Source: Escherichia coli O157:H7 (GTDB lineage: Bacteria; Pseudomonadota; Gammaproteobacteria; Enterobacterales; Enterobacteriaceae). Taken from it: a stretch of DNA of 64,000 nt. Of the stretch, positions 47,501 to 51,780 are shown in pieces (position 1 is the stretch's first letter; every line of letters begins with the position of its first letter). The position numbers were made by a program. The stretch lies in NCBI RefSeq assembly GCF_013167455.1, contig NZ_CP038328.1; one strand, 5' to 3'.

Positions 47501-50500
47501 ATTCGTTCCCCGCACTCTGCATCTCTGCTTTGCATACCTGCCGATGTTATACCCATCTCGGCGCTTCTCAGGATTCAAGAGCTGGTTACAGTTACTGAGG
47601 ACTGAACAAGGGCGCTCTTGTAAAAACAAGAGTTTTCTCGTGGTTTCGCCGAACTGTCACACTTACGTTCGGTTATGTGCTTAATAATGTTATGAAAAAG
47701 AAACCGGTTGCGCAGTTGGAGCGTCAGCATTCACTGCTGGAAAATCCATGTGCTTATGGGTTGTTATCGCAGTTCCAGGCTGCGATAGTCGTTAACTGTT
47801 TTACACTTAATAAAATAATTTGAGGTTCGCTATGTCTGACGACATGTCTATGGGTTTGCCTTCGTCAGCGGGCGAACACGGTGTACTACGCTCCATGCAG
47901 GAGGTTGCAATGAGCTCCCAGGAAGCCAGCAAGATGCTGCGTACTTACAATATTGCCTGGTGGGGCAATAACTACTATGACGTTAACGAGCTGGGCCACA
48001 TCAGCGTGTGCCCGGACCCGGACGTCCCGGAAGCTCGCGTCGATCTCGCGCAGTTAGTGAAAACTCGTGAAGCACAGGGTCAGCGTCTGCCTGCACTGTT
48101 CTGTTTCCCACAGATCCTGCAGCACCGTTTGCGTTCCATTAACGCCGCGTTCAAACGTGCGCGGGAATCCTACGGCTATAACGGCGATTACTTCCTTGTT
48201 TATCCGATCAAAGTTAACCAGCACCGTCGCGTGATTGAGTCCCTGATTCATTCGGGCGAACCGCTGGGTCTGGAAGCCGGTTCCAAAGCCGAGTTGATGG
48301 CAGTGCTGGCACATGCTGGCATGACCCGTAGCGTCATCGTCTGCAATGGTTATAAAGACCGCGAATATATCCGCCTGGCATTAATTGGCGAGAAGATGGG
48401 GCACAAGGTCTATCTGGTCATTGAGAAGATGTCAGAAATCGCCATTGTGCTGGATGAAGCAGAACGTCTGAATGTCGTTCCTCGTCTGGGCGTGCGTGCA
48501 CGTCTGGCTTCGCAGGGCTCCGGTAAATGGCAGTCCTCCGGCGGGGAAAAATCGAAGTTCGGCCTGGCGGCGACTCAGGTACTGCAACTGGTTGAAACCC
48601 TACGTGAAGCCGGGCGTCTCGACAGCCTGCAACTACTGCACTTCCACCTCGGTTCGCAGATGGCGAATATTCGCGATATCGCGACAGGCGTTCGTGAATC
48701 CGCGCGTTTCTATGTTGAGCTGCACAAGCTGGGCGTCAATATTCAGTGCTTCGACGTCGGCGGCGGTCTGGGCGTGGATTATGAAGGTACTCGTTCGCAG
48801 TCCGACTGTTCGGTGAACTACGGCCTCAATGAATATGCCAACAACATCATCTGGGCGATTGGTGATGCGTGTGAAGAAAACGGTCTGCCGCATCCGACGG
48901 TAATCACCGAATCGGGTCGTGCAGTGACTGCGCATCACACCGTGCTGGTGTCTAATATCATCGGCGTGGAACGTAACGAATACACGGTGCCGACCGCGCC
49001 TGCAGAAGATGCGCCGCGCGCGCTGCAAAGCATGTGGGAAACCTGGCAGGAGATGCACGAACCGGGAACTCGCCGTTCTCTGCGTGAATGGTTACACGAC
49101 AGTCAGATGGATCTGCACGACATTCATATCGGCTACTCTTCCGGCACCTTTAGCCTGCAAGAACGTGCATGGGCTGAGCAGCTTTATTTGAGCATGTGCC
49201 ATGAAGTGCAAAAGCAGCTGGATCCGCAAAACCGTGCTCATCGTCCGATTATCGACGAGCTGCAGGAACGTATGGCGGACAAAATGTACGTCAACTTCTC
49301 GCTGTTCCAGTCGATGCCGGATGCGTGGGGGATCGACCAGTTGTTCCCGGTTCTGCCGCTGGAAGGGCTGGATCAAGTGCCGGAACGCCGCGCTGTGCTG
49401 CTGGATATTACCTGTGACTCTGACGGTGCTATCGACCACTATATCGATGGTGATGGTATTGCCACGACAATGCCTATGCCGGAGTACGATCCAGAGAATC
49501 CGCCGATGCTCGGTTTCTTTATGGTCGGCGCATATCAGGAGATCCTCGGCAACATGCACAACCTGTTCGGTGATACCGAAGCGGTTGACGTGTTCGTCTT
49601 CCCTGACGGTAGTGTAGAAGTGGAACTGTCTGACGAAGGCGATACCGTGGCGGACATGCTGCAATATGTACAGCTCGATCCGAAAACGCTGTTAACTCAG
49701 TTCCGTGATCAAGTGAAGAAAACCGATCTTGATGCTGAACTGCAACAACAGTTCCTTGAAGAGTTCGAGGCAGGTTTGTACGGTTATACCTATCTTGAAG
49801 ATGAATAATTAAGATTATTCTGCTGGCGGGTCGATTTATTTACGTAAATCGGTCCGCTTTCTTTTTATATATTCTTAAAAATAATTTAGCTGCTTTTCTT
49901 ATTAAATAATCTCCCTACAATCGCTGCATTAATTAAATGCAGAGGGAACGGTTATGAAAAAATGGAAAGTACGCAGCGCGTTGGTGGCATTAATCGTGCT
50001 GCTGGCCGGTTGTTCCAGTAATGCGCAGTATAATAGCAGTGCATCGGGCAATGTCGGCACCGCCTGGGGTGGGGATGTGCACTCAACGGTTCAGGGCGTA
50101 TCTGCTGAGCGAGCCTGGCGCGATCCGGCGGAGATGATCGTTATTAGTTATTCGACTAATGTTCCTTCCGGCTACGATCGCGTTTATAGCATTCGTATTA
50201 ACGAACTGGAATATGCTATTCGCGATGGTAATTTTAATTCTCTACCTATTACGCGTGTTTATGATTCATCTAATAATGAACCACGCTATATTGTCCATGC
50301 CAGAGTCGGAATGAATTATCAATTATATGTCCGTAATTACAGTCGTAACACCAACTACGAGATCGTTGCTACGGTTGATGGCCTGGATGTGCTGAACGGC
50401 AAGCAAGGTTCGCTGAATAACAACGGCTATATTGTGAATGCCGGAGATTCGTTAGCGATTAAAGGATTCCGCAAAGATAAACATACCGAAGCGGCTTTTC

Positions 50501-51780
50501 AGTTCGCCAACGTTGCTGATTCCTACGCAGCCAATTCGGCGCAAGGCGATGTGCGTAATACCGGTGTAATCGGCTTTGCCGCCTTTGAATTACAAGGCCA
50601 GGCGCAAAACGCGCTGCCACCGTGCTCTGGACAAGCCTTTCCGGCAGATAACAATGGCTATGCGCCGCCACCGTGTCGGAAATAGCAACCTCGCTTGATG
50701 CCTCGCCCATTTAAGGCGATAATTAGCACAAACTTGTGTTTCGCAAATCCAACCCTTCCTCGTCGGGCCTAACGACGCGGAAGGGTTTTTTTATATCGAC
50801 TTTGTAATAGGAGTCCATCCATGAGCACCTTAGGTCATCAATACGATAACTCACTGGTTTCCAACGCCTTTGGTTTTTTGCGCCTGCCGATGAACTTCCA
50901 GCCGTATGACAGCGATGCTGACTGGGTGATTACTGGTGTGCCGTTCGATATGGCCACTTCTGGTCGTGCGGGGGGACGCCACGGTCCGGCAGCTATCCGT
51001 CAGGTTTCGACGAATCTGGCCTGGGAACACAACCGCTTCCCGTGGAATTTCGACATGCGTGAGCGTCTGAACGTCGTGGACTGTGGTGATCTGGTATATG
51101 CTTTCGGCGATGCCCGTGAGATGAGCGAGAAGCTGCAGGCGCACGCCGAGAAGCTGCTGGCTGCCGGTAAGCGTATGCTCTCCTTCGGTGGTGACCACTT
51201 TGTTACGCTGCCGCTGCTGCGTGCTCATGCGAAGCATTTCGGCAAAATGGCGCTGGTACACTTTGACGCCCACACCGATACCTACGCGAACGGTTGTGAA
51301 TTTGACCACGGCACCATGTTCTATACCGCGCCGAAAGAAGGTCTGATCGACCCGAATCATTCCGTGCAGATTGGTATTCGTACCGAATTTGATAAAGACA
51401 ACGGCTTTACCGTGCTGGACGCCTGCCAGGTGAACGATCGCAGCGTGGATGACGTTATCGCCCAGGTGAAACAAATTGTGGGTGATATGCCGGTTTACCT
51501 GACCTTTGATATCGACTGCCTGGATCCTGCATTTGCGCCGGGAACCGGTACGCCGGTAATTGGCGGTCTGACCTCCGATCGCGCTATTAAACTGGTACGC
51601 GGCCTGAAAGATCTCAACATCGTTGGGATGGACGTAGTGGAAGTGGCTCCGGCATACGATCAGTCGGAAATCACCGCTCTGGCAGCGGCAACGCTGGCGC
51701 TGGAAATGCTGTATATTCAGGCGGCGAAAAAGGGCGAGTAAGCACCAGATGCGATGCGCACGGGTAAAACGTGCCATTAA

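Follow-up and report, generated by a model that had tools for sequence, protein, structure and literature searches.

A lipoprotein gene between speA and speB of Escherichia coli O157:H7, very probably part of an ancestral enterobacterial arrangement lost from K-12

Between the genes for biosynthetic arginine decarboxylase (speA) and agmatinase (speB), Escherichia coli O157:H7 carries a gene for a lipoprotein of 243 amino acids (aa). We analyzed it in a stretch of 64,000 nucleotides (nt) from NCBI RefSeq assembly GCF_013167455.1, contig NZ_CP038328.1; this whole stretch is referred to as the window, and positions are those of the window unless stated otherwise. The interval that holds the gene is very probably the ancestral enterobacterial arrangement and a self-contained transcription unit, and the allele of strain K-12, which lacks the gene, is a derived loss. 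We take the long form to be the ancestral one in E. coli, from which the K-12 form was derived by loss, because the gene is syntenic after speA across genera and its divergence is in step with that of speA.

The speA-speB interval in Enterobacteriaceae

The speA-speB spacer of the window covers 1012 nt (49809-50820), between the end of speA at 49808 and the start of speB at 50821. The corresponding spacer of K-12 MG1655 has 137 nt, and the same K-12 spacing is given in PMC8674398. Alignment of the two forms delimited the difference. K-12 is without 935 nt (49809-50743), which comprise the speA terminator, an AT-rich region with the putative promoter of the lipoprotein gene, and the gene itself, and has an unrelated 60-mer instead. 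The two alleles are identical over the 77 nt that precede the speB ATG, which include the sequence CAAATCC, a hairpin, a run of T residues, and the ribosome binding site (RBS), and the first difference downstream is encountered 121 nt past CAAATCC, within speB.

The order speA-lipoprotein gene-speB was found in several species each of Citrobacter and Klebsiella and in Kluyvera, Intestinirhabdus, Phytobacter, Kosakonia, Entomohabitans, and Enterobacter sp., with homologues that are 53-75% identical to the O157:H7 protein. Closer to E. coli, it is present at 95-96% identity in two cryptic Escherichia lineages and in E. whittamii. For E. albertii only the gene and speB were seen, as the contig begins inside the gene (94% identity over residues 74-243). 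In Salmonella the gene follows speA, but a 7.4-kb island parts it from speB. This island of Salmonella enterica (10733-18317 of locus L106) carries a GntR/FCD regulator, a mannitol-dehydrogenase-like gene, a zinc-dependent alcohol dehydrogenase gene, and genes for Ldh_2, DUF386, and alpha/beta hydrolase proteins.

Within Escherichia, the proportion of synonymous differences (pS) was 0.25-0.27 for the lipoprotein gene and 0.21-0.26 for speA, and the ratio of nonsynonymous to synonymous divergence (dN/dS) of the lipoprotein gene was 0.058-0.067. Since its synonymous divergence matches that of speA and its dN/dS is about 0.06, the gene has been vertically inherited and is under purifying selection.

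The two alleles were surveyed in 5426 complete E. coli genomes, using a query of 1401 nt for the full interval. Of the 5425 genomes that gave a match, 3543 contained it in full, and the interior of the gene was found in 3556. The 60-mer of K-12, which marks the short allele, occurred in 1867 genomes (approximately 34%), always as a single copy and always at the speA-speB site. No long-allele genome contained it, even when blastn was run with a word size of 11 at E<=1. A slightly different short subtype is present in O103:H2, and the few remaining genomes include one laboratory strain without speA and one in which the gene is split by an ISKpn26/IS5-family element. The interval of the window is 100% identical to that of E. 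coli O157:H7 genomes. The gene is thus absent from K-12 and from about one-third of the complete genomes, and this patchy presence in E. coli is due to loss, not gain.

Further losses have occurred independently. In strain EC2001, the lipoprotein gene is interrupted at a TTAG site (near window position 50455) by an ISKpn26-like element of the IS5 family of insertion sequences (IS), and the same junction was found at the end of a short-read contig. These two cases are represented by 807-2738 of locus L104 and 3003-3027 of locus L103. Shigella dysenteriae retains gene fragments. An Enterobacter-like metagenomic contig (SpeA 94% and SpeB 98% identical) has a deletion whose junction, reading TAA-GTTAAC-GGCGATAAT, falls inside the speB promoter. 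A cluster of 448 member sequences (P0025) with a product of 174 aa was considered as a frameshift allele and rejected; the product is cut off by the IS5-family insertion at a contig end.

Transcription signals around the gene

The features of the locus, all on the plus strand, are as follows.

47832-49808, plus strand: speA (biosynthetic arginine decarboxylase), the upstream neighbor, 100% identical to annotated WP_001295380.1.
49809-50743, plus strand: segment of 935 nt specific to the long allele and very probably ancestral, from alignments to a K-12-like genome and MG1655; a unique 60-mer replaces it in K-12-type genomes.
49825-49868, plus strand: predicted intrinsic terminator of speA, a 15-bp stem with a 4-nt loop (49825-49858) followed by the T-rich tail TTTCTTTTT, from a terminator scan and folding; deleted in K-12.
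49916-49921, plus strand: putative -10 box (TACAAT) of the lipoprotein gene promoter, with a weak -35; a conserved motif that a consensus scan did not flag.
49954-50685, plus strand: lipoprotein gene, 243 aa, with signal peptide and lipobox, Cys20 at 50011-50013; from the open reading frame (ORF), annotation, homologues, structural model, and dN/dS.
50695-50723, plus strand: sigma-70-like promoter TTGATG-17-GATAAT between the lipoprotein stop codon and the hairpin, from a promoter scan.
50751-50793, plus strand: hairpin and run of seven T residues (T7), 28 nt before the speB ATG, from folding; part of the backbone shared with other alleles (also 18247-18290 of locus L106 and 1777-1819 of the K-12 locus L001).
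50821-51741, plus strand: speB (agmatinase), the downstream neighbor, 100% identical to WP_000105566.1.

The only credible ORF in the spacer is that of the lipoprotein gene, which is preceded by the RBS GAGGGA at 49942-49947. Farther upstream, a motif of the form TAC(A/T/C)(A/T/C)T occupies the same place in Escherichia, Citrobacter, Klebsiella, and Enterobacter sp., and it is likely the -10 element of a promoter belonging to the gene itself. A perfect palindrome, TGCATTAATTAAATGCA, lies at 49925-49941 between this box and the RBS. It is found in Escherichia sequences and not in those of other genera, and could serve as an operator.

Two segments, 49825-49868 and 50751-50793, have the makeup of an intrinsic terminator as far as sequence can indicate, namely, a G+C-rich hairpin and then a T run. 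The 72-nt stretch with the first of them folds at -21.3 kcal/mol (z score of -5.1 relative to shuffled sequences), and 7 of 14 pairs showed compensatory changes among 13 genomes. The second (50751-50787 without the T run) folds at -24.4 kcal/mol with a z score of -5.3. It was not listed by a simple scanner; in its fold, each strand of the stem contains a single unpaired position. No Rfam family matches either hairpin.

The hairpin preceding speB does not differ by a single base in K-12, in which it comes directly after the 60-nt remnant 3' of speA. Among 16 sequences, 9 of its 13 pairs never vary and 2 change in a compensatory manner. The inner stem is identical throughout Escherichia, Citrobacter, Klebsiella, Kluyvera, Intestinirhabdus, Entomohabitans, and Salmonella, with variation (CC, CT, or TT) at two loop positions. 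In Salmonella the hairpin remains before speB, behind the island, although the usual promoter motif upstream is not evident there. The near invariance of this hairpin across Enterobacterales, compared with the freely drifting speA terminator of the same genomes, suggests a sequence-specific role, e.g., as an attenuator or as a binding or processing site.

The sigma-70-like promoter upstream of the hairpin is similarly conserved. No variation was seen in its TTG and GG-GATAAT elements among 11 sequences representing 8 genera, K-12 included, and the K-12 60-mer supplies TTGAAT-17-GATAAT at the same distance from the hairpin, so that motif and spacing are alike in the two alleles. Because of this invariance and the counterpart in the 60-mer, speB is predicted to have a conserved promoter of its own in both alleles. 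As the hairpin lies downstream of the conserved promoter and 28 nt from the ATG, every speB transcript would have to cross it; the hairpin is thus predicted both to end transcription arriving from upstream and to lie in the leader of any speB transcript.

A preliminary description of the window, made from the sequence alone, had noted a stem-loop after speA and a strong terminator belonging to the lipoprotein gene, and had reasoned that speB, if separated from speA by an insertion, would need a promoter of its own or read-through. The stem-loop is present and represents the terminator of speA itself. The strong hairpin is also real, but it cannot be assigned to the lipoprotein gene; it is an element of the backbone and of the speB leader, because K-12 shares it unchanged and, in Salmonella, it has remained next to speB. 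An own promoter motif for speB was indeed found, while the premise of an insertion was not borne out.

From these signals, the lipoprotein gene would form a transcription unit set between the speA terminator on one side and the speB promoter with its leader hairpin on the other, provided that the promoters are used as predicted. In the derived allele, 60 nt that still provide TTGAAT-17-GATAAT before the same hairpin stand in place of the 935 nt. A distance of 1 kb lies between speA and speB in most E. coli, and the two would belong to separate transcription units; speB retains a conserved promoter motif as well as its unusually invariant, possibly regulatory leader hairpin.

The lipoprotein and its family

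The N terminus of the predicted protein, MKKWKVRSALVALIVLLAG-C20-SS, has a basic n-region (MKKWKVR), a hydrophobic core (SALVALIVLL), and a lipobox (LLAG-C20). Homologues show the same signal peptide pattern. L-A-G-C20 agrees with the lipobox pattern [LVI][ASTVI][GAS]-C, and the cysteine is invariant in 35/35 aligned homologues. An Asp at position +2 after the lipidated cysteine bars sorting to the outer membrane (the Lol-avoidance rule). Here, Cys20 is followed by Ser21 and Ser22, and since residue +2 is Ser and not Asp, sorting by the Lol system to the outer membrane is expected. RefSeq annotates an identical protein as "lipoprotein" (WP_000758914.1). From the gene order in the published Sakai table (tktA, ECs3810; yqgB, ECs3815), the gene should be ECs3813 in Sakai.

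A word-indexed search returned 286 homologues at E<=1e-3. Given this number and the dN/dS of about 0.06, the ORF is not a chance ORF. A full profile search extended the family to 4211 clusters at 50% identity, 3275 of them at E<=1e-10. All members have a single domain and are roughly 160-385 aa long (fragments included), with an N-terminal linker of variable length. An alignment of 35 homologues spanning several proteobacterial classes contained 27 invariant columns. The invariant or near-invariant motifs are GT-WG(E), Y-L--N-S---YE-V-TVDGLDV--G, GY, I-GFRK, AAF-F, YAAN, N-GVIG-A-FEL, and, in the conserved C-terminal tail, AFPAD..YAPPP.

The spe-locus protein is a true member of an uncharacterized proteobacterial "outer membrane lipoprotein" family (e.g., UniProt A0A1Q4PKQ4 and F0F1A2). 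Its full-length identity to the proteins of Providencia, Neisseria, Kingella, Variovorax, Paracoccus, and Burkholderia is 35-44%, and the motifs GT-WGE, TVDGLDV-G, GFR, and AFPAD..YAPPP are common to both. The Enterobacteriaceae clade differs from the rest of the family in that it alone follows speA and has two C-terminal cysteines. Fungal DUF7918-domain proteins in the AlphaFold database are only 9-19% identical to the lipoprotein; unlike it they are eukaryotic and not lipoproteins, and their function is likewise unassigned.

An AlphaFold2 model was built from the 35-sequence alignment (predicted local distance difference test score [pLDDT] of 81; predicted template modeling score [pTM] of 0.80). 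An all-beta core, mostly with pLDDT values of >90, spans residues 34-213; ahead of it, residues 1-31 are disordered, and the tail has lower confidence. By this model and the N-terminal signals, the prolipoprotein would be acylated at Cys20 and then cleaved by signal peptidase II, the Lol system would deliver it to the inner leaflet of the outer membrane, and an all-beta domain of approximately 180 residues would face the periplasm on a short flexible tether. Tentatively, the protein may be an outer-membrane-anchored, periplasm-facing beta-sandwich module, a binder being likelier than an enzyme. It resembles those outer membrane lipoproteins sorted by Lol whose globular periplasmic domain is held by a flexible tether, such as LpoB, in having a signal peptide, an LAG-C lipobox, a residue other than Asp at +2, and a low-confidence linker followed by a folded domain. 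It differs from characterized lipoproteins in that no relationship of sequence or fold connects it to them. Its role appears to be accessory: purifying selection keeps the gene in most lineages, yet it is dispensable and has been lost repeatedly.

Outside Enterobacteriaceae, homologues are stand-alone genes in unrelated housekeeping contexts, next to metJ/rpmE/priA, thrS/recO, mltG, ahcY, or the his operon. In approximately 60 loci from such taxa, neither speA nor speB was located within 4 kb of the homologue. Guilt by association was tried as a route to function and gave no lead, as the neighbors of distant homologues vary among genera. The Variovorax homologue lies between hisD and hisC of the histidine operon and is followed by genes for a small protein with a faint Rap1a match and a SUFU-like protein (6001-7881 of locus L011 and about 20 Variovorax/Comamonadaceae loci). 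"Citrobacter sp. 18056" has a 64%-identical copy of the lipoprotein gene that is not near speA and speB and would constitute a second locus of the family within Enterobacteriaceae. An equally scoring copy is present in a contig labeled "Chryseobacterium sp. 18061"; the label may be wrong or the contig contaminated. The two copies are those of loci L021 and L022 (4001-4729).

Competing explanations and the origin of the K-12 allele

The preliminary description had correctly reported a spacing of about 1 kb here and about 140 bp in K-12 and a 243-aa lipobox protein in the spacer, and it had read the gene as an insertion. A recent horizontal insertion of a foreign lipoprotein cassette in the lineage of this strain would agree with the absence of the gene from K-12, with the AT-rich upstream flank, and with a G+C content at third codon positions of 0.47, below the 0.61-0.62 of speA and speB. 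The AT-rich flanks that had been described exist on the upstream side only (49809-49953; G+C content of 32%), the downstream flank not being AT-rich, and the overall G+C content of the gene (0.488) is near the window mean (0.497). In accordance with the earlier observation that no integrase, IS, or repeat explains the gene, the ORFs and sequence inspected at the spacer borders contained no integrase, transposase, IS, or tRNA-type signature, and the only flanking direct or inverted repeats were short and at chance level. Neither border mobility genes or repeats nor incongruence or patchiness by gain, the marks of a genomic island or mobile insertion, were found. Synteny of the gene moreover extends over more than 10 genera and every Escherichia species sampled, and its synonymous divergence equals that of speA, so that a recent insertion is highly improbable. 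Another possibility, that the ORF is a decaying, functionless remnant on its way out of the species, draws on its repeated inactivation by the K-12 allele, the IS5-family insertion, the Shigella fragments, and the Enterobacter-like deletion. We give it very little credence in view of the dN/dS of about 0.06 within Escherichia, the full-length gene being intact in about 3550 complete genomes, and the 27 columns that are invariant across 35 homologues.

The lipoprotein could also be a functional part of the arginine decarboxylase/agmatinase pathway, as an envelope partner or an agmatine/putrescine sensor, its position reflecting coregulation with speA and speB. The position after speA is conserved in Enterobacteriaceae and is kept in Salmonella despite the island that splits off speB. 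However, a covarying terminator parts the gene from speA, and a promoter and hairpin part it from speB; membership in a speA-speB operon would imply that no terminator intervenes, whereas one follows speA and a -24 kcal/mol hairpin with T7 precedes speB. Nor is the association with speA and speB constant, being limited to Enterobacteriaceae, and homologues with 35-44% identity (in Providencia, Gilliamella, Neisseria, Variovorax, Ralstonia, and others) occur in unrelated housekeeping contexts and never beside speA or speB. K-12 runs the pathway without the gene, and the lipoprotein evolves much faster across genera (53-75% identity) than SpeA and SpeB (87-99%). A pathway role is therefore quite unlikely. 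Agmatine induces speB. A joint reading, in which the envelope lipoprotein works with the SpeA/SpeB route (e.g., in agmatine/putrescine handling) and the speB hairpin is the attenuator or the protein- or ligand-responsive element behind this induction, is unlikely as well.

Several results weigh against the account preferred here, of an ancestral interval with a self-contained lipoprotein gene that K-12 has lost. No Pfam family matched the lipoprotein or any of the 35 aligned homologues, even at E<=10. NCBIfam gave just sub-threshold signal-peptide matches (ActS, LptM, and Lpp), far under the cutoffs, and long-linker relatives had no match in it. PADLOC returned no match, PHROGs noise alone, and the PDB no significant match to the lipoprotein, and the neighbors of distant homologues are not conserved from genus to genus. 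When the 60-mer was compared with the deleted 935 nt on both strands, the best local similarity score equaled the mean of shuffled sequences; a simple deletion cannot yield the 60-mer. At a deeper level, distant Enterobacterales-like metagenomic contigs have speA, 56-66 nt, the hairpin, and speB, without the lipoprotein gene. These contigs (SpeA 74-87% and SpeB 80-83% identical to E. coli) were chosen for a short distance from the speA stop codon to the hairpin, with taxa assigned from identity alone and the identity of the hairpin core imposed by the search pattern. They suggest that the hairpin predates the lipoprotein gene. The gene was probably inserted once at the speA-speB site, near the base of Enterobacteriaceae, and "insertion" may be the right word for that remote event, of whose mechanism no trace remains.

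The 60-mer of the short allele occupies 1710-1769 of locus L001 and stands for window positions 49809-50743. Its flanks are ordinary E. coli sequence, with 27 of 1709 nt differing in speA and 36 of 1757 nt downstream. As sources, a second E. coli copy (word-11 blastn), the deleted 935 nt, other genera, and metagenomic short alleles were tried, and none explained it. We favor over in situ deletion a replacement with a short foreign segment, by recombination between the conserved 3' end of speA and the invariant hairpin, from a donor without the gene; the chance that the allele arose in this way is somewhat below even. Such an origin would account for the fact that the 60-mer is unlike the deleted 935 nt even though divergence in the flanks is just 1.6-2%. 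The long alleles of all Escherichia species, E. albertii included, are 95-100% identical to each other in the promoter region; they have one promoter sequence in common, which the 60-mer, only about 64% alignable to it, does not resemble. At its last two wobble sites (T at -19 and G at -4), the speA gene of the short allele has the state of Salmonella and Klebsiella, not that of Escherichia, and short arrangements occur in other Enterobacterales. On the other hand, no donor was found among the sampled sequences, the closest being 64-78% identical over approximately 50 nt, the two wobble matches could be due to chance, and the exchanged tract, at about 80-200 nt, would be very short.

Derived loss in K-12 creates a blind spot in the reference strain: a gene that is under purifying selection and occurs throughout Enterobacteriaceae, as well as in about two-thirds of the complete genomes of E. 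coli, is one member of a family of approximately 4200 clusters without a Pfam or NCBIfam model or a solved structure. A literature search under the locus tags tried found no paper; deletion from the reference strain has left the gene unstudied. Without outgroups, a difference from K-12 should not be taken as an insertion. Overall, the locus is mostly ordinary genome biology, with modest interest in the undescribed but selected lipoprotein family, the K-12 replacement sequence, and the invariant speB hairpin. Downstream of the interval, 3' of speB, REP-like repeats at 51771-51925 matched Rfam naRNA4 below the gathering score of 59.5, with 53.5 and 37.7 bits on the two strands.

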